Below, piece by piece: positions 2,288 to 9,930 of a stretch of 11,257 bases of DNA. The position numbers and the translations under genes were made by a program. How positions within the stretch are numbered: position 1 is the stretch's first letter; each line of letters starts with the position of its first letter. This stretch comes from a virus. Lineage: Duplodnaviria; Heunggongvirae; Uroviricota; Caudoviricetes. The stretch lies in the IMG/VR virus record IMGVR_UViG_2734482772_000014; one strand, given 5' to 3'. The notes beneath the pieces are model-generated. The model was not told the DNA's origin, did not search any database, and saw nothing but the letters and a program-made list of their open reading frames with translations.

Positions 2288-4729
2288 TCAATCATCACTC
2301 TGCCCGCTCTCCACACCGTAAGCACGGGGCATGAACTCCTCAGCCTTCTCGTTATAGCCAACGTTGGTTTGCGCTCTGCCGTTAATGCTTCTCGTCAGGT
2401 AGCTGGCTCGGTACTCTTTTGCTGCTGATTTTATGGCGCGTGAAAACTTATTGACGGAAAGCGGTTTACCCAAACCGTGATACTCCATAAACGCCAGATA
2501 AAGATGATAAAGATACGTCCTCGGCTCTGGCTGGCCTGCCCATGTACCTCCGCCCATCATCATGCCTTTGGGTTCGTTCATGAAAAAAAGCGCCGCACAC
2601 ATATCGACAACCGGATCCGTGCCGCGTTTAACCTCTAGCGCCTCCTGCGAATCGCGCTGCTCTAGTAATAGTTCCTTTGCTTTGTTCTGGTCGGAAAAGG
2701 TGGTTAGCAGGTGGCGGATAATCACCGGGATTTCTCGCCTGATTTTTGCTGTTAAATCCGGGTCTTTGTCTGCGTCTGATACCGGGTTATTAAACGGGAA
2801 TATCACGCGGCGGCGGGCAATGCCCCCGTTTCGCTCCGTGAATGTCATCGGCTCGTTATTGGTTGCCATAACAACGGCATTTATCACGGTTGTGAACTGC
2901 TTTTCATATTTCCCATCAATCTCTACCGGATCGCCGCCCGTAATGGCTTTAATCCCCGCACCCTCTCCAACATAGCGGGTCTGGTCAGGCATAATAATCA
3001 GGCTTTTTCCTACGAACTGCGCCCGTCCCCGTGCGGTGTCCAGCGTCATCATGCTACCGCTGGCGGTGTTGTGTTCACCTGCCAGCGTGGTTGCTATGCT
3101 GCTGAATACGGATTTTCCACTGCCGCCCTCGCCAGTTATCTCAATGAATAGCTGCCAGTCGTGACGCTTCGCCAGCACCATAAACAAGGCTGCTTTGATA
3201 CGCTCGGCCTTATGATGGTCGCCAGCCGTTGCATGATTCAGCCAACTGGTAAAATTGGGGGCGCTGGTGGTAATATTTTCCCCCGGCGCTGGCGGGGTGT
3301 AGGTGATCCCATTGTGGTTCATCAGCCAGTTACCCGGCGAATGGGCGGAAAACGTCTGCGTAGCGAGGTCATAAACGCCGTTATCAAAACCAATCAAATC
3401 CCCGCTCCGCTCACCAATTACCGGTATTTGCAGCTTCATGGTTGCGACAACCGATTTAATCCCCTTTTCGGTGTAGTGGGCTTCGTGCTCGTCGAAAATT
3501 GCCACCATAACCCTTTCTAATTCACTGTCTGGTAGCTTCTCCCATACGCCAGATTCGTAGCAGTAAACAGTGCCACTATCAGGGTTAACCGCCAACATAT
3601 CCCATCGAGATGAAAGCAACCGCGCTTTCTGGCTGGCTGCCATTTGTGCAATATCTCCGACTTCGGCTTTACGGCGGGATTTACCGCCCGCAATGGCCTG
3701 TAGTTGTGGTTTCACGGCTTCCCCCTGAATCTGGTACATCGAATCGTTAAACGCAGCCGTAGCGACTTCCAGCCCGTTTTGCTGGCGGTAGTCGTCCCAG
3801 TCGGCTTTGTAGTCTGTCGGCGGCAGCGCCACCCAGCCAGCCACGGATAAGGCGGCTTTCTCTGCGGCATCTTTGCCCGTGTTCGCCTGTTCGTCCTGTT
3901 GGTGGTCGTTATCTGCGGCAATGATAATTTGCGACTGCGGGTGTTTCCGGCGCATCACTTCGGCAACGGGTAGCAGGTTGCCCGCATCAATGGCGCACAC
4001 TGTCAGCGCGTCAGGGCGCATCAGGTGGACTGATAAAGTGGTTGCCAGCCCCTCGGCAATAATCACCGCCTGCGGCTGTTCCGGTGCGTTAACGGCGTGA
4101 TATGCCCCGCGCTTTGCTGAACCTGTCAGGAGTCGCTTCTCTCCCTGCGGTGTAATGGTTTGCGCTGCTGCCACTGCGCCGGATTCGTCCACCAGCTCCA
4201 GCAATAACGAACCATCCGGCATAACCGGATAGTTAAACCCGGTCAGCCCTTTTGATTGCAGGTAATCAGATTCTCCCTGTGTGGCACTCTGGCGCATTCC
4301 GGCATACAGACGGGCAAACGTAGCCCTTCGCTGCTCTGCATCCTCTGCTGCCTGTTTCTGGCGCTCCTGCTCACGCTGCTGGCGGTCAGCTTCCAGTTGC
4401 TCTCTTCTATGGCTCGCTGCCACCGGGTCGGTTTCCGCTGCCCGGTAATCAATACCCAGCACATCAGCGGCAAGCCTTGCCGCTTCTGTGGTGTCGCAGT
4501 TGTTCACCTTCTTAATCAGGTCTAAACCGTCACCAGCGCCACACTGATTGCAGATAAAGCTACCGCGCCCGTTGTCGTCGAATCTGAAACGGTCTTTTCC
4601 ACCACATGCAGGGCATGGAGAATGGCGGCGCGATGAATCAGGCACGTCGATAGACAATCCAGCCAGCACATAAGGCCAGCGCCCGGCGGCGGCACTGGTC
4701 ACTTCGCGGATAATGTCGATATTACGCAT
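2288..4729 (-). CDS. P4 alpha-like bifunctional primase-helicase (813 aa from ATG 4729)
   Basis: Zinc ribbon CPACGG...CNQCG; Toprim signatures (IIAEG..., IIIAADND); Walker A GEGGSGKS in the C-terminal helicase region. SD AGGGGG upstream of ATG 4729..4727, placed just after the stop of the 113-aa gene (4724..4722). Confidence 0.88.
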   Translation of the reverse strand: MRNIDIIREVTSAAAGRWPYVLAGLSIDVPDSSRRHSPCPACGGKDRFRFDDNGRGSFICNQCGAGDGLDLIKKVNNCDTTEAARLAADVLGIDYRAAETDPVAASHRREQLEADRQQREQERQKQAAEDAEQRRATFARLYAGMRQSATQGESDYLQSKGLTGFNYPVMPDGSLLLELVDESGAVAAAQTITPQGEKRLLTGSAKRGAYHAVNAPEQPQAVIIAEGLATTLSVHLMRPDALTVCAIDAGNLLPVAEVMRRKHPQSQIIIAADNDHQQDEQANTGKDAAEKAALSVAGWVALPPTDYKADWDDYRQQNGLEVATAAFNDSMYQIQGEAVKPQLQAIAGGKSRRKAEVGDIAQMAASQKARLLSSRWDMLAVNPDSGTVYCYESGVWEKLPDSELERVMVAIFDEHEAHYTEKGIKSVVATMKLQIPVIGERSGDLIGFDNGVYDLATQTFSAHSPGNWLMNHNGITYTPPAPGENITTSAPNFTSWLNHATAGDHHKAERIKAALFMVLAKRHDWQLFIEITGEGGSGKSVFSSIATTLAGEHNTASGSMMTLDTARGRAQFVGKSLIIMPDQTRYVGEGAGIKAITGGDPVEIDGKYEKQFTTVINAVVMATNNEPMTFTERNGGIARRRVIFPFNNPVSDADKDPDLTAKIRREIPVIIRHLLTTFSDQNKAKELLLEQRDSQEALEVKRGTDPVVDMCAALFFMNEPKGMMMGGGTWAGQPEPRTYLYHLYLAFMEYHGLGKPLSVNKFSRAIKSAAKEYRASYLTRSINGRAQTNVGYNEKAEEFMPRAYGVESGQSDD

Positions 4730-5063
4730 GGTTGCCCCCTGCCACGGTCGCGCCCATGTCTTTAACCATGCTTTGCCATATCTCACGCCCTACGTCAGTC
4801 AATCCGTCATTAGTGACGCAACGATCAAGAATCTCGATCCCCACGGTTTCCCACTGCGGGTAGGACACTTTCATGGCTGCCAGTGTGTAGCTATCGATCA
4901 GGCTGCGAACGCCTTTTACTCCATTGACGATTTCCACACGGATTTGCTGGCCTGCCGCGTCAACCATGAAGTAATTGCCACCATTGATAGCCGTAATGTG
5001 GTTATACAGTGCCGACGCATACTTATTCGCCAGCGCATTAAGTCGGAAATTTTTAGTAATCAT
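4722..5063 (-). CDS. Hypothetical protein (113 aa)
   Basis: SD GAGGGGG upstream of ATG 5063..5061; ends 4 nt before the primase SD/ATG. No recognised motif. Confidence 0.5.
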   Translation of the reverse strand: MITKNFRLNALANKYASALYNHITAINGGNYFMVDAAGQQIRVEIVNGVKGVRSLIDSYTLAAMKVSYPQWETVGIEILDRCVTNDGLTDVGREIWQSMVKDMGATVAGGNHA

Positions 5064-5072
5064 GTCGCCCCC

Positions 5073-5699
5073 TCAGTGCGCCAGCGGCATTTCAGGCCAG
5101 CCGTTTTCATCCAGTTCAGCTATAAAGCTGTTGTGAAGTTCAGCAAGCGTTTCACGCCCGAACGGGGTCAACTCGCCGCGCTCCGTGTCGATCATGGCCT
5201 GATAAAAAACAATGGCGTTCGCTGTTCCCTGCTCAATGCCGTAGCGCTCAACCATTGCGCCCTCCATGTTGTTAGCCATCGCCAGACGTTCCGCGAACGG
5301 GTAAACCACAATCCCCGCCGTGCCATTGGAGTAAATCGCCACCTGCGATGAAGTGCCGTCAGACTCAGTTACCGTGGTTGTGCCGTTTTCGCGCTTCATC
5401 TCAGAAATGAACGTCGCAGCAATCAGCCAGCGCCACATAGTGACGTTATGCTGCGCGGTGAAGTCGAACCAGCCACGCGCCCCGCCATCAGCAACGGCAA
5501 AATGAATGGCGTATCCGATATCTGGCTTATCGTCGTACTCTCCGGCGTCAAGGCCGTTCACGGCGCTCTCGTAGCTGATAAGAGCAACCTGCTCATATCC
5601 CCCGGCATCATTGCGGGTCATGATATTGACGCCGTGCGGTGTGGCTTCGGCGTGTAATAAGTCGGCATTTCCCGATTTAATGGTCGGTGCGTTGCTCAT
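5073..5699 (-). CDS. Hypothetical protein (208 aa)
   Basis: ATG 5699..5697 overlaps stop of upstream gene (ATGA). No recognised motif. Confidence 0.5.
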   Translation of the reverse strand: MSNAPTIKSGNADLLHAEATPHGVNIMTRNDAGGYEQVALISYESAVNGLDAGEYDDKPDIGYAIHFAVADGGARGWFDFTAQHNVTMWRWLIAATFISEMKRENGTTTVTESDGTSSQVAIYSNGTAGIVVYPFAERLAMANNMEGAMVERYGIEQGTANAIVFYQAMIDTERGELTPFGRETLAELHNSFIAELDENGWPEMPLAH

Positions 5700-5959
5700 G
5701 CGCTGCCCTCCGCATCAATTCTGGCTATATCGACAATCGTCAGGACTTTACTCAGCCAGCAATACGCGATGGCTGCTTGCTCAACTTCGAGGAGTGGTAA
5801 TAAATCGGTCATAACGTGAGCCAGCCCATTGCGGGCGCGGGTCATGCGTTCTGCTGTTCGGTCTGCCAGCGTAAAATCATCCGGGTAAGCCTGCTCGCGG
5901 GATAACATCGCTTCGGCTTCCAGCTCTGCCGGGTGGCGATAGATGGTAGTTATGTTCAT
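5696..5959 (-). CDS. Hypothetical protein (87 aa)
   Basis: ATGA overlap with upstream gene at 5959..5956. No recognised motif. Confidence 0.45.
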   Translation of the reverse strand: MNITTIYRHPAELEAEAMLSREQAYPDDFTLADRTAERMTRARNGLAHVMTDLLPLLEVEQAAIAYCWLSKVLTIVDIARIDAEGSA

Positions 5960-6270
5960 TTGCCCGCCCTCCCTTTGGCTTCTTTTTCACTGATTGAGCG
6001 CAAGAATGCGGCGTTTGCAGCGATATCGTTCAGCGCCCGCGCAAATTCTCCGATATGTCCCAGCATTGCGCCTAATCTGTACATATCAGCCTTAGCGATT
6101 TCCTCCGGGTAGCCATCGCTACCAGCCGCCCAGAACATGAGGCTACCAATGGCACTTACGCCCAGCATTAAATCATCCACGGCATCACTGGCGCGGCTCT
6201 CAATTCCGTTCAGATCATCAGGTGTACAACCATCAAATTTGCAGGACACTAAATCGTCATACATGCTCAT
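5956..6270 (-). CDS. Hypothetical protein (104 aa)
   Basis: ATGA overlap at 6270..6267. No recognised motif. Confidence 0.45.
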   Translation of the reverse strand: MSMYDDLVSCKFDGCTPDDLNGIESRASDAVDDLMLGVSAIGSLMFWAAGSDGYPEEIAKADMYRLGAMLGHIGEFARALNDIAANAAFLRSISEKEAKGRAGK

Positions 6271-6446
6271 GCCGCCACCTCACGAACGCGGGTAATCTGG
6301 ATGTGGGAAAGGCGTTCATTTCTGGCCTGATTTAGCGCCTCAGCTTTGGCGCTGATCGCGCTGCGGGCGTCAACGATATAAACGAACTCGACTAATTCGC
6401 CGCTCCGGGCGGTGGCGCATCCTGCAACACGGAAGTAATTAAGCAT
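6267..6446 (-). CDS. Hypothetical small protein (59 aa from ATG 6446)
   Basis: ATG 6446..6444 preceded by AGGGGG; overlaps the stop of the Icd-like gene by 8 nt (ATGCTTAA). The ORF track's longer version begins at a TTG. Confidence 0.4.
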   Translation of the reverse strand: MLNYFRVAGCATARSGELVEFVYIVDARSAISAKAEALNQARNERLSHIQITRVREVAA

Positions 6447-6631
6447 GTGCGCCCCCTGTGCGAATACGTCCGGCAAAAAAGCAAACGTGATCCCGCGCCA
6501 GAATGCGGCGGGCTTCCTGCTCGGTCTCTGCGGCGATATGGTGAATTTTGGCGGTAATTGTCGGGCAATCGCGGCGAACTGCGGCGATAATCCAGATAAA
6601 TTGCGGTTTTTGGGTAGGGGTAGTAGCCATT
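6439..6631 (-). CDS. Icd-like small protein (63 aa, MATTPTQKPQFIWIIAAVRR...)
   Basis: Strong SD AAGGAGG 7 nt upstream of ATG 6631..6629. Size and position (immediately after a C4/CI-type leader) match Icd of P1/P4-like elements. Family call from memory. Confidence 0.45.
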
Positions 6632-6654
6632 ATGGCAGCCTCCTTTGTGTTTAA

Positions 6655-6845
6655 GGAGTCACCGCATAAGGTTCCAATCTTAATAGTGGCGGTGACGTTA
6701 GCAGGGTTGGAACTACCGGACACAAAGGAAACCGGCCTACGCGAACGTAGCCCCACTAACGCCACCATAGATACAGTACGGGCAAGGCCGCTGATTTGAT
6801 GTGCGTGGTGATCGGACACAAAAAAAGACGCTTTCGGCGTCTGTG
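6655..6845 (-). ncRNA. Putative C4/CI-type antisense-RNA leader
   Basis: On the minus strand, two direct repeats UUUGUGUCCG(A/G)U (plus coords ~6811-6824 and ~6717-6730) are complementary to the Icd-like RBS ACACAAAGGAGG (plus 6641-6653). No protein-coding signal with an SD in this interval. Boundaries approximate. Confidence 0.3.
6819..6842 (-). terminator. Short hairpin + U7 (AGACGC-CGAAA-GCGUCU-UUUUUUU): terminator or leader structural element
   Basis: Minus-strand stem-loop followed by 7 U. The stem is only 6 bp, so it may instead be part of the antisense-RNA leader. Confidence 0.3.
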
Positions 6846-7039
6846 TCGCCCTTAGTGTGTTCGGGGTTCCAATCCCGGTTGCTGATTTTGCAGCAACGCT
6901 TGGACTATAACAGCTTTTCTCTGCTAGGTGGTCATACCAGATAAAACCGTAACCCTTTAAGAGTTTTTCCTGTGCACGGCTCACCATCTTTTTGTTGAGG
7001 GTAAGCGCCTCGCGTACTGGTAACGGAACTCCGGGCGCT

Positions 7040-7085
7040 GCGGTATCAATATCAGGTTTTATAAGGTTGTAAGGGTTAACATTTG
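7040..7085 (-). promoter_or_regulatory. Putative promoter/operator region with twin GTTAAC palindromes
   Basis: GTTAAC-ATTT-GTTAAC at 7065-7080, followed on the minus strand by TTACAA...TATAAA/TATTGAT candidate -35/-10 elements. Sits in the non-coding gap upstream of the antisense leader. Confidence 0.25.
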
Positions 7086-7129
7086 TTAACAGGCTAGCCA
7101 GATTAAAGGCTTCTTTCTGGGCGGCAGGT

Positions 7130-7312
7130 TCATTCAGTATCACGGCGCACCTCCACGAACTCATTAACGAATCTCTCCAAAGGCTGAACACATGGCGACT
7201 GATAGCCCTCGCGGTAAAAGGTCACTCGGTTATGCTCGACGCGCTCAACGGTCACTACAGCCCCGTGCGAATCCTTGTAACGGCTTCCCGGCATCGGATT
7301 GTGGTTACGCAT
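7130..7312 (-). CDS. DUF4222-like small protein (60 aa)
   Basis: SD GGAGG 6 nt upstream of ATG 7312..7310; start overlaps the antirepressor stop by 8 nt (ATGCGTAA). Pattern GSRYKDSHGAVVTV...VTFYREGY...C...LERFVNEF resembles DUF4222 from memory. Confidence 0.45.
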   Translation of the reverse strand: MRNHNPMPGSRYKDSHGAVVTVERVEHNRVTFYREGYQSPCVQPLERFVNEFVEVRRDTE

Positions 7313-8114
7313 GGTTTACCTCCAGACGCTTAGCGAGCCAGCGTTGCGACAGGCGGGTGAGTTCTCCTTTGCGCTGCTCATATTCCATGCCCATATCAAT
7401 TAACGTGATATTGGTGCTTTCGAGATAGGCGAGGTGTTCAAGCTGTGCTGCGTTCATGCTGTCCCGTGGTTCGCCAGTAATGCCATTTGCCTGCGCCCAC
7501 TGCTTCGCCGTCATGCCACCCAGCACGATACGGGCGATCATGTTGCTCTCGTTGCTGTAGTGGCGAGCCTGCGTCTGTTTACCCTGTTCTGCGCGGGCGC
7601 TTTCCAGCGCTACGCACATCGGTTTAAACAGGTTTGCGGCACCGATACGGGCTTTTAGCTGGCGACGATAGCGGGCGGCGATTTCAGGCACGCTACGCTG
7701 TAGTGCTTCCTCGCACTGGATGAAATAACGGCGGATAGCGCGACCCTGCTCGTTGCGTTCAACCATTGCCACTTCTTTAGCCATATCCAGCGATAGCAGA
7801 TAATCATGTTCTATTTGTTGGCGAGTTTTTGCGCTCGCCAGTTTTGGCGTGCTCAAATTTTCAACACGGATAAAATCGGTTCCGGCAATAAAACCGTACT
7901 GGTCAATTCGGCCTTTAATCCAGTTAGTGAAGTCGCGGCCCACCCCCAGCGCCTTATGCAAGGCTCTGGCGCTAACAATATTGGTTTCACGCCCGCCAAT
8001 GCGTCCGGCAATAACGGGAACAATAGCGGCAAAGTCGTCGCCGTTAATTACTCCCGTGTTAACGTTGGGTTGCGGGGCGGCCTCAGAAATTAATCTGCTT
8101 TTTTCGATAGTCAT
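7305..8114 (-). CDS. AntA-like phage antirepressor (269 aa)
   Basis: N-terminal VPVIAG...VSARALHKALGVGRDFTNWIKGRIDQYGFIAGTDF matches the AntA/AntB N-terminal domain pattern (VSAR.LH..L.V...F..WIK.RI..YGF....DF). SD GGAG upstream of ATG 8114..8112. Confidence 0.6.
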   Translation of the reverse strand: MTIEKSRLISEAAPQPNVNTGVINGDDFAAIVPVIAGRIGGRETNIVSARALHKALGVGRDFTNWIKGRIDQYGFIAGTDFIRVENLSTPKLASAKTRQQIEHDYLLSLDMAKEVAMVERNEQGRAIRRYFIQCEEALQRSVPEIAARYRRQLKARIGAANLFKPMCVALESARAEQGKQTQARHYSNESNMIARIVLGGMTAKQWAQANGITGEPRDSMNAAQLEHLAYLESTNITLIDMGMEYEQRKGELTRLSQRWLAKRLEVNHA

Positions 8115-8127
8115 ATTTTCGGCTCCG

Positions 8128-8559
8128 TTATGCGGCGGTAAATGCGTCTGGGTAGAGGTTGAGAATGTCGGCTATTTCAGACTTACTAAGCCCCTGATAA
8201 CCCCCTGCGGCGGCGTTGCTGTTAACCAACTGGATAACTCGCATCACATCACCACGGCCCACAAATCTGTAGCGTAGGTGTGCGCCAATGCCATCGGGGT
8301 TCTTTTCGTCTATACGCTCAAGCTGAATATCAAGCCTGCGCTCTAACTCGCTGGCGTAGTTCCTTCCAGACGAAAGGCGGCAATAACGCAGAATATCGTT
8401 TTCTGTCCATCCCTCTATACCAGTACGCAGCATATAGACGCGGGCGCGGTGTTTCTTTGGGGTACGCCTAGGTACTTGTACCGGGCTGGTGGTCGGCGTA
8501 ATATCAGACGTGCGAATATCTGAGTTAGCCGCCTGTAATGGGCGGTTTTTCTTTTTCAT
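8128..8559 (-). CDS. Hypothetical basic protein (143 aa from ATG 8559), coupled to alpA
   Basis: ATG 8559..8557 overlaps the alpA stop (ATGA). Lys/Arg-rich N-terminus suggests nucleic-acid binding. Family not recognised. Confidence 0.5.
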   Translation of the reverse strand: MKKKNRPLQAANSDIRTSDITPTTSPVQVPRRTPKKHRARVYMLRTGIEGWTENDILRYCRLSSGRNYASELERRLDIQLERIDEKNPDGIGAHLRYRFVGRGDVMRVIQLVNSNAAAGGYQGLSKSEIADILNLYPDAFTAA

Positions 8560-8762
8560 CAAGCCACCTTTCCCCGACGTTCTGCCAGCCAGTTGTTAAT
8601 CTCTACCGCATCAAAGGCGGTAATCTTCTCGCCCAGCTTTACCGGACGTGGTAGTGAACCGTTTCTTACTTTACGGTCGATGGTGGATACACTAACGCCC
8701 AGTAATTCAGCCAGGCGGAAGCGTCTGATATAGCCTTTTGTAGGAATAGTGTCGGTGTTCAT
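8559..8762 (-). CDS. alpA: AlpA/Vis-family phage transcriptional regulator / excisionase-like (67 aa)
   Basis: Winged-HTH signature RLAELLGVSVSTIDRKVRNGSLPRPVKLGEKITAFDAVEINNWL typical of the AlpA family; position next to a P4-type integrase. Confidence 0.8.
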   Translation of the reverse strand: MNTDTIPTKGYIRRFRLAELLGVSVSTIDRKVRNGSLPRPVKLGEKITAFDAVEINNWLAERRGKVA

Positions 8763-9842: not shown

Positions 9843-9875
9843 TGCGTCACCTTTTACGCTGCGCCTTATTTTGTG

Positions 9876-9930
9876 ATTGAGCCAGGCGGTAAGGCTTCCC
9901 GCTTTTCGCCCCGTCGAGCTAGGCTCAATC
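9876..9930. repeat. Inverted repeat GATTGAGCC...GGCTCAATC in the int-cargo intergenic region
   Basis: 9-bp arms at 9876-9884 and 9922-9930 with a GC-rich ~37-bp spacer; no U-tract follows on the minus strand. Confidence 0.5.

Follow-up and report, generated by a model that had tools for sequence, protein, structure and literature searches.

A chain of overlapping small genes between a C4-type RNA leader and the primase of an EcCIMP1-like island: probable body of an immunity-controlled early operon

Leaders of the C4 and isrK types have already been reported in Gram-negative phage-inducible chromosomal islands (PICIs), as has a replication origin just downstream of the primase gene, pri (PMC10111431). 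For the PICI EcCIMP1, experiments have demonstrated AlpA-controlled excision and transduction by the P22-like phage Kapi1 (Pick, Stadel and Raivio 2025, PMC11773190); this PICI affects both helper-phage biology and virulence-gene expression, and its small genes are not discussed in that paper (PMC11773190). The left operon of P4 runs, in order, through PLE, cI RNA/icd, epsilon, ORF151, ORF106 and alpha, and contains two 8-nt overlaps. In the immI regions of P1 and P7, the loop of the C4 RNA is said to pair with the icd ribosome-binding site, and icd is reportedly coupled translationally to the gene downstream, so that translational repression leads to transcriptional polarity. Here a locus combining elements of these systems is described within an 11,257-nt stretch of viral DNA (Caudoviricetes; IMG/VR record IMGVR_UViG_2734482772_000014), the whole of which is termed the window. 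In it an Icd-like gene (icd) and five small genes (termed here g59, g104, g87, g208 and g113) connect an RNA leader to a primase gene of the P4-alpha type. The six genes are probably what is translated from the early (replication) operon, under immunity control, of an EcCIMP1-like island, and the g208 and g113 proteins are proposed to modulate its primase.

From icd to the primase the successive junctions, as read from the sequence, measure -8, -4, -4, -4, +9 and -8 nt. The icd stop and the g59 start share the 8 nt ATGCTTAA (6446-6439); ATGA overlaps join g59 to g104 (6270-6267), g104 to g87 (5959-5956) and g87 to g208 (5699-5696); a 9-nt spacer (5072-5064) separates g208 from g113, with a GAGGGGG overlapping the g208 stop codon; and g113 overlaps the primase by the 8 nt ATGCGTAA (4729-4722), with an AGGGGG 5 nt 5' of the primase ATG. 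Every stop/start overlap quoted in a preliminary description of this DNA is present on the minus strand, exactly as written. As in a translationally coupled series, each stop overlaps or abuts the next start, and a G-rich Shine-Dalgarno (SD) sequence lies 4-8 nt 5' of all six chained starts, in each case within the preceding open reading frame (ORF). The six junctions (4722-6650) also resemble one another, each having a similar G-rich SD (GAGGG or GGGGG) followed 4-6 nt later by ATG(A).

The chained gene layout is correct and clearly non-random. Coding density over 4722-6630 is 99.5%, a value that none of 500 dinucleotide-preserving shuffles reached (mean ORF coverage 0.55, maximum 0.90), and the RefSeq coding sequences (CDSs) of near-identical Escherichia coli islands comprise the same six genes with the same boundaries. 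Between 6820 and 2288 a simple consensus scan found no sigma-70-like promoter, and no intrinsic terminator other than one weak terminator-like match within the primase gene; no signal that would divide the chain is therefore predicted between the genes. One tightly coupled chain from a C4-type leader to the primase, as had been proposed, is thus borne out by the layout, by the Rfam matches described below and by junctions conserved in 23 loci. The further wording 'stoichiometrically coupled unit', however, overstates what overlaps can indicate: overlapping codons point to co-regulation, not to equal stoichiometry.

Selection and homology bear on whether all of these frames are genes. Median pairwise ratios of nonsynonymous to synonymous substitution (dN/dS; NG86) are 0.24 for g87 (9 comparisons), 0.23 for g208 (17), 0.22 for g113 (36) and 0.30 for the primase (20), which indicates purifying selection on g87, g208 and g113. 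For g59 (0.3-0.6, 6 comparisons) and g104 (0.4-1.1, 3 comparisons) the comparisons are too few to interpret; these poorly determined ratios, together with the absence of a Pfam match for either protein and the frequency with which ORFs of at least 50 aa arise in the shuffles, are what could be said for regarding some of the ORFs, g59 and g104 especially, as chance open frames in a GC-rich leader. That is extremely improbable, however, inasmuch as both proteins have homologues in distant genera (23-49% identity) at the same operon position; g104 matches two PHROG families (phrog_6805 at E 5.6e-11); each gene has a strong SD and a start overlapping the upstream stop; where either is missing from a relative the whole gene is gone and the ATGA junction is restored; and no shuffle attains the observed tiling. 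Homologues of g59 that are 35-49% identical occur in Klebsiella, Tatumella, Pluralibacter and Pantoea, in two of these four loci directly after icd with the same overlap, and g87 is present in 17 of 23 scored loci. By their distribution, g59 and g104 are facultative members of the cassette. The view that the ORFs are real genes is upheld by the dN/dS of about 0.23 for three of the genes, by two structure models with a predicted local distance difference test (pLDDT) score above 91, and by homologues across Enterobacterales.

The leader itself was rightly called C4-like: matches to the c4-a1b1, isrK and C4 models, all above their Rfam gathering scores, precede the Icd-like ORF (Table 1). The predicted fold of the C4 RNA (-39.3 kcal/mol) has the two hairpins expected of it, and its loop sequence is UCCUUUGUGU. 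Nucleotides 39-53 of C4 are complementary to a segment overlapping the icd SD (AAGGAGG, 8 nt 5' of the ATG) through 15 contiguous base pairs, of which 12 are Watson-Crick and 3 are G-U; the pairing segment has the apical loop of the second hairpin at its centre and extends into the 5' arm of its stem, and this is the longest match of C4 to the leader outside C4's own stem. This complementarity, like the gene anatomy and its conservation, is a matter of direct observation. The icd product matches NCBIfam NF033153 ('Icd-like') at E 1.3e-20 and shares 40% identity with the Icd-like end of the P4 'cI' ORF. The sequence features of C4/CI immunity of the P1 immI/P4 type are therefore all found here: a C4 RNA, an upstream a1/b1 target and a downstream target at the icd ribosome-binding site.

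Table 1. Positions of the chained genes, leader elements and probable origin in the window
Feature	Positions	Strand	Description
candidate leader promoter	6934-6904	minus	TGACCA, 19-nt spacer, extended -10 TGTTATAGT; predicted +1 at ~6897
c4-a1b1 target	6910-6858	minus	Rfam RF03163, 53.6 bits (gathering score 46.7)
isrK RNA	6897-6821	minus	Rfam RF01394, 74.6 bits (gathering score 50)
intrinsic terminator at the isrK end	6842-6826 plus T-run	minus	terminator scan
seqA-like target region	6910-6821	minus	c4-a1b1 target plus isrK RNA
C4/CI-type antisense immunity RNA	6772-6685	minus	Rfam RF01695, 82.1 bits (gathering score 45), E 2.5e-15, full-length model
second C4 target, overlapping the icd SD	6650-6636	minus	ACACAAAGGAGGCTG, contains AAGGAGG
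icd-like	6630-6439	minus	63 aa; first translated ORF, opens the chain; the 'leader' gene of the preliminary description
g59	6446-6267	minus	59 aa
g104	6270-5956	minus	104 aa
g87	5959-5696	minus	87 aa
g208	5699-5073	minus	208 aa
g113	5063-4722	minus	113 aa
P4-alpha-type primase	4729-2288	minus	813 aa; last gene of the chain
probable replication origin	2020-2272	both orientations	at least 12 iterons of 9-10 bp (TATCCCTAC / GTAGGGATA)

Compared with P1/P7 immI, then, the window has matches to the C4, a1b1 and Icd models as well as the loop-SD pairing, but the cargo differs: in immI it is the Ant antirepressor, whereas in the window it is five ORFans and the primase, with an antirepressor gene lying upstream of the leader. 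The window likewise resembles the isrK-orf45-anrP locus of Salmonella Gifsy-1, whose IsrK has a dual sRNA/mRNA role, in matching the full-length isrK model, terminator included, and in having a prophage-type early regulatory leader; the downstream genes differ. A separate observation concerns the long ORF (6439-7191, minus) that extends icd upstream. Residues 95-195 of its translation match the Pfam 'Ash protein family', and this match covers exactly the isrK and C4 RNA genes (6606-6909); RefSeq joins the isrK/C4 stretch to Icd as CDSs of 241-355 aa named 'Icd-like' or 'ash family protein'. The part of this ORF that precedes the ATG at 6630 is most likely not a protein but RNA genes read in translation.

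By analogy with P1 immI (c4-icd-ant) and with the P4 left operon, the following regulatory outcome may be envisaged. Transcription would begin near 6897 and would cross the seqA/isrK-like element, with its terminator, and then the C4/CI RNA gene before entering icd, whose SD is complementary to the C4 loop. Because each start lies in, or at most 9 nt from, the end of the previous gene, with its SD buried there, ribosomes would be handed on from icd to g59, g104, g87, g208, g113 and the primase in turn. Once paired with the icd ribosome-binding site, C4 would prevent translation of icd and leave the message untranslated and exposed to Rho-dependent polarity; since the downstream starts would rely on ribosomes arriving from upstream, the block would propagate. 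In this manner one small RNA could silence the whole chain, including the replication initiator that presumably acts on the adjacent iteron origin, and primase and replication would stay off until a helper-triggered, AlpA-driven programme overrode the immunity. The g208 and g113 proteins would modulate the alpha-type primase/initiator. The other three (g59, g104 and g87) would be small, exchangeable accessories belonging to a pool on which the early-left operons of temperate phages also draw. If true, this provides a concrete wiring diagram for keeping an island's replication gene silent by means of one small RNA.

The genes upstream of the leader (7130-8762, minus: alpA, a 144-aa gene, antA/B and DUF4222) likewise form a chain, their junctions measuring -4, +13 and -8 nt, and 5' of the isrK terminator no terminator is predicted except for two weak terminator-like matches within the antA/B CDS (8043-8027 and 7896-7877). 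AlpA-driven transcription may read through into the icd-primase operon, much as PLL does in P4.

The gene order of the window as a whole is P4-type integrase, a 321-aa unknown, AlpA, a 144-aa unknown, AntA/B antirepressor, DUF4222 and the RNA leader, followed by icd, the five small genes, the primase, an iteron-rich probable origin, a 100-aa unknown, SSB, a 223-aa HEAGH protein and PerC. Pfam identifies integrase, Phage_AlpA and primase domains; all of the genes are on the minus strand and the probable origin is 3' of pri. In E. coli 64.1 a near-identical island (97.6% identical over the cassette; ~12.5 kb) occupies the interval between yicC and yicG. The genes sid, psu and delta, all three of which P4 has, are absent both from the gene set of the window and from the whole E. 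coli 64.1 island, and the complete island contains no phage structural or lysis genes. Of what SatelliteFinder looks for in a P4-like satellite, int, alpA, the ash region and alpha are present, but sid, delta and psu are not; of the hallmarks of Gram-negative PICIs, those legible in sequence are all found, namely co-oriented int, alpA and pri, a probable downstream origin, a lack of structural and lysis genes, and a size within the range of ~10-20 kb. Judged by gene content, the element is an EcCIMP1-like, P4-related PICI and, because the E. coli 64.1 island lacks sid, psu, delta and structural genes, not a P4-like satellite in the strict sense; the preliminary description, which had taken it for a P4-type satellite, has to be amended accordingly, the backbone being that of EcCIMP1. 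Having no sid, delta or psu, the island therefore cannot remodel P2-type capsids.

EcCIMP1 shares with the window the P4-type integrase, AlpA, the 143/144-aa protein, AntA/B, DUF4222, the ash/C4/icd leader, overlapping small genes, a primase and PerC, with protein identities of 88% for g113, 85% for Icd, 64% for g208 and 60% for g87; neither EcCIMP1 nor the window's island has structural or lysis genes. They differ in the small-gene cassette (64, 87, 73, 200, 113 and 123 aa in EcCIMP1; 59, 104, 87, 208 and 113 aa in the window), in the primase (918 aa, of the TOPRIM+DUF927 type, versus 813 aa, of the P4-alpha type) and in integration site (tRNA-Thr by proA versus yicC-yicG in the window's closest E. 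coli copy). Moreover, EcCIMP1 has P22-like ejection-protein genes downstream of pri, which the window's island lacks. P4 is like the window in having a C4/CI-type leader followed by an Icd-like ORF, 8-nt overlaps between small genes, a DUF5375-type protein close upstream of the alpha primase, iterons near alpha and, farther upstream, a gene of the AlpA/Vis type; unlike P4, the window has no homologue of epsilon or ORF151, and g113 intervenes before the primase. Islands of the EcCIMP1-like kind are common in E. coli: at least part of the cassette occurs in 598 of 5426 complete genomes (~11%), and at least 80% of it in 35.

How the cassette varies was examined in eight E. coli loci and 45 loci from other Enterobacterales. 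The 23 of these that have both icd and the primase represent more than 10 genera and contain 137 junctions, of which 116 overlap (62 by 4 nt and 46 by 8 nt), 20 have a gap of 8-11 nt and only one has a gap of more than 12 nt (the gene caller used favours tiling, but RefSeq coordinates concur wherever available). An SD-like motif accompanies 132 of the 137 starts. Between icd and the primase each locus has from 2 to 7 small genes, all from a common pool in which g59, g87 and g104 are joined by at least eight further families; because their number varies in this way, the cassette is best regarded as modular, and the fixed six-gene unit envisaged earlier does not hold. Gains and losses are clean and gene-sized, an ATGA or 8-nt junction being re-formed each time. 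Among the E. coli loci, for example, L003 is without g104, L005 without g104 and g113, and L004 without g208, whereas in L006 only a 68-aa gene and g113 remain between icd and the primase. Set against this variability, the g208-g113 pair is the conserved core, and of all the small genes g113 is conserved best: a g208 homologue lies 8-12 nt 5' of g113 in 36 of 51 loci, and in 23 of the 51 the primase start and the g113 stop overlap, by 8 or 4 nt (27 if four short loci that are cut at the primase are counted). The gene-sized gains and losses in the relatives (L001-L053) fall exactly at the G-rich SD-ATG(A) junctions, a pattern that suggests exchange of cassette genes via microhomology at these junctions.

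Database searches give names to few of these proteins. Scans of all five small proteins against Pfam, NCBIfam and PADLOC found nothing significant, sequence searches of the PDB found nothing below E 0.2, and g59 and g87 match no family in Pfam, NCBIfam or PHROG. The earlier statement that none of the five carries a recognizable motif therefore stands as regards Pfam, NCBIfam and PADLOC, but not as regards PHROG, which has families for g104, g208 (phrog_1515, E 2.4e-45) and g113 (phrog_37628, E 5.8e-48), nor as regards the remote relationship of g208 to P4 ORF106/DUF5375 described next. A weak 'antitoxin' match in PHROG (E 0.023) and a Cas6b match in PADLOC (E 0.043) were taken as noise. Also rejected, having no domain support, were the RefSeq names of several homologues in E. 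coli (L001 12997-13260, L003 1797-2060 and others): 'nicotinic acetylcholine receptor subunit beta' for g87, 'ubiquinol-cytochrome C reductase' for g104, and '2-polyprenylphenol hydroxylase related flavodoxin oxidoreductase' for g208; these look like propagated misannotations.

The relationship of g208 to P4 emerges from profile comparisons. By hmmscan, g208 weakly matches phrog_5991, the family of P4 ORF106 (E 1.5e-3); by hhalign, ORF106 aligns with the g208 profile at 92% probability (E 6e-7), and a DUF5375 profile of 26 sequences does so at 94.5% probability (E 7.4e-8, 96 columns). DUF5375 positions 6-102 align to g208 82-199, with the g208 beta-meander as an insertion. Neither g208 nor g113 matches PF17345 (DUF5375) even at E up to 10, while P4 ORF106 scores 210.9 bits; because the Pfam threshold is not reached, the C-terminal half of g208 (~82-199) is classed only as a probable remote homologue of P4 ORF106/DUF5375 and not as a member of that family. 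The g208 protein is two-lobed (AlphaFold pLDDT 92.3, from a diverse alignment) and twice the size of ORF106, with an additional N-terminal lobe and the beta insertion. An internal duplication of g208, suggested by the order of its secondary structures, was unsupported by hhalign of the N-terminal against the C-terminal half. The model of g113 (pLDDT 91.3, likewise from a diverse alignment) is helical with one hairpin; g113 aligns with g208 104-200 (hhalign E 1.4e-3) in the same secondary-structure register, the two having an LTxxGRE motif in common, and may be a more distant paralogue of g208. A resemblance of g113 to cold-shock domains (E ~0.7) was rejected because this confident model is not an OB barrel. 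The 123-aa protein located between g113 and the primase in EcCIMP1 in turn resembles g113 (hhalign 43%, E 2.5e-4). A Foldseek search of BFVD with g208 returned nothing at E up to 0.001. Both g208 and g113 are modelled as confidently folded proteins that have no solved structural relative. These two proteins and the remote DUF5375 relationship are the only new leads, the architecture being otherwise as expected for an early operon of the P4/P1 type.

In P4, 14 nt separate the end of ORF106, which we take to be Cnr, from alpha; in the window the distance from the end of g208 to the primase start is 352 nt, and g113 is the only gene in this interval. Cnr is said to bind the C-terminal DNA-binding domain of alpha and to restrain replication. 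A Cnr-like role for g208 and g113, in which they would modulate the alpha-type primase/initiator, is accordingly put forward as a hypothesis with moderate support from these sequence relationships; in 90% of P4-like elements, genes of the cnr family are reported to be situated between epsilon and alpha (PMC8628076). The ORF106/DUF5375 link would provide a first functional handle on two of the island's most conserved 'hypothetical' proteins.

Several observations weigh against an immunity-controlled replication operon in which g208 and g113 act on the primase. Within the leader, (i) the promoter call is weak and based on consensus only: in a relaxed hexamer search its +1 falls on the first base of the isrK model, but a stricter scan gave nothing; and (ii) the isrK terminator sits 5' of C4 and may limit the transcription that reaches icd. 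As for the two proteins, (iii) g208 falls below any Pfam threshold for DUF5375 and has its extra N-terminal lobe and a 22-residue insertion; (iv) a direct hhalign comparison of g113 with DUF5375 was not significant; (v) neither protein is indispensable, given that g208 is missing from L004 and L006 and g113 from L005; (vi) the identity of ORF106 with Cnr is presumptive; and (vii) the alpha residues T675, G732, L733 and L737, which we take to be the sites mutated in Cnr-resistant P4 and which the P4 alpha sequence does carry, are not conserved in the window's primase. Finally, (viii) temperate phages (phi467, phiP27 and Stx phages) and prophage-like loci of Xenorhabdus and Yersinia likewise carry g208 and g113 homologues, and no P4-type primase was found within 7 kb of these copies, which argues against a function tied to alpha.

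In the phages and the prophage-like loci alike, the g208 and g113 homologues belong to an early-left operon that has the repressor region on one side and xis-int on the other, with antirepressor genes as neighbours. In phi467 (L055, 5091-6615) an antirepressor-type gene of the ORF6N/KilAC kind separates the g208 and g113 homologues, and in phiP27 (L056, 4941-5579) the g208 homologue is located in the early-left operon that runs from the repressor region to xis-int. Such a distribution, in which g104 takes part along with g208 and g113 and from which P4-type primases are missing, is what one would expect if the five small proteins were unrelated, accessory 'moron'-like cargo serving host takeover or anti-defence, with overlaps that reflect genome compaction and cheap early expression. 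The variable content of the cassette (2 to 7 genes, cleanly gained and lost) and the absence of any functional family match in Pfam, NCBIfam or PADLOC fit this alternative as well. It is nonetheless rather unlikely, considering that the g208-g113 spacing is fixed at 8-12 nt in 36 of 51 loci, that g113 overlaps the primase start in 23 (27) of them, and that g208 is homologous to a P4 gene found at the same place before alpha; nor does the lack of a PADLOC match favour an anti-defence cargo. A replication operon under C4 control, with g208 and g113 as proposed modulators of its primase, remains the preferred reading. Its boldest extension is doubtful, though not fanciful: g208, g113 and the EcCIMP1 123-aa protein could represent an unrecognized, diversified Cnr/DUF5375-like superfamily that binds alpha-type (and perhaps other) initiators, the phage-borne copies acting on competing replicons, with the G-rich SD-ATGA junctions serving as microhomology 'joints' at which genes are swapped while C4-gated coupling to icd is kept.

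The preliminary description also supposed that these genes might include satellite-helper interaction factors, that is, analogues of P4 epsilon or of the interference and packaging-redirection proteins of PICIs. That proposal was pure inference and is quite improbable. It is true that g59, which follows icd immediately and overlaps it by 8 nt, has the place held by epsilon in P4, and that the related EcCIMP1 depends on and affects a helper phage (PMC11773190). However, none of the five proteins has any similarity to P4 epsilon (PF25738) or ORF151 by BLASTP or hhalign; AlpA and an AntA/B antirepressor, the latter a more obvious candidate for such a factor, are already encoded upstream; characterized Gram-negative PICIs keep their packaging and interference genes downstream of pri (PMC10111431, PMC11773190); and the same proteins occur in complete temperate phages.

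The primase in which the chain ends has Zn_Ribbon_Prim, Toprim_3, D5_N, DUF5906 and Pox_D5 domains, scores above the TIGR01613 cutoff and shares 39% identity with P4 alpha along its whole length. Directly 3' of its stop codon, iterons (repeat families D1-D3 and I1-I22) are arranged at 10-bp phasing around an AT-rich core and mark the probable origin listed in Table 1.

Two observations concern other parts of the window. An int-alpA RNA motif (RF02996; 60.6 bits, gathering score 35.8) occurs at 9863-9929 on the minus strand, directly 3' of the integrase gene and before the 321-aa gene and alpA. At the opposite end, DNA encoding the C-terminal tail of SSB, DQRPPFDDETPF, is repeated on either side of the 223-aa HEAGH (metalloprotease-like) gene (496-1167): one copy is in the region 1235-1290, and the tail recurs at the end of a separate 54-aa ORF (285-449), which could be either an SSB remnant or a mimic of the SSB tail.

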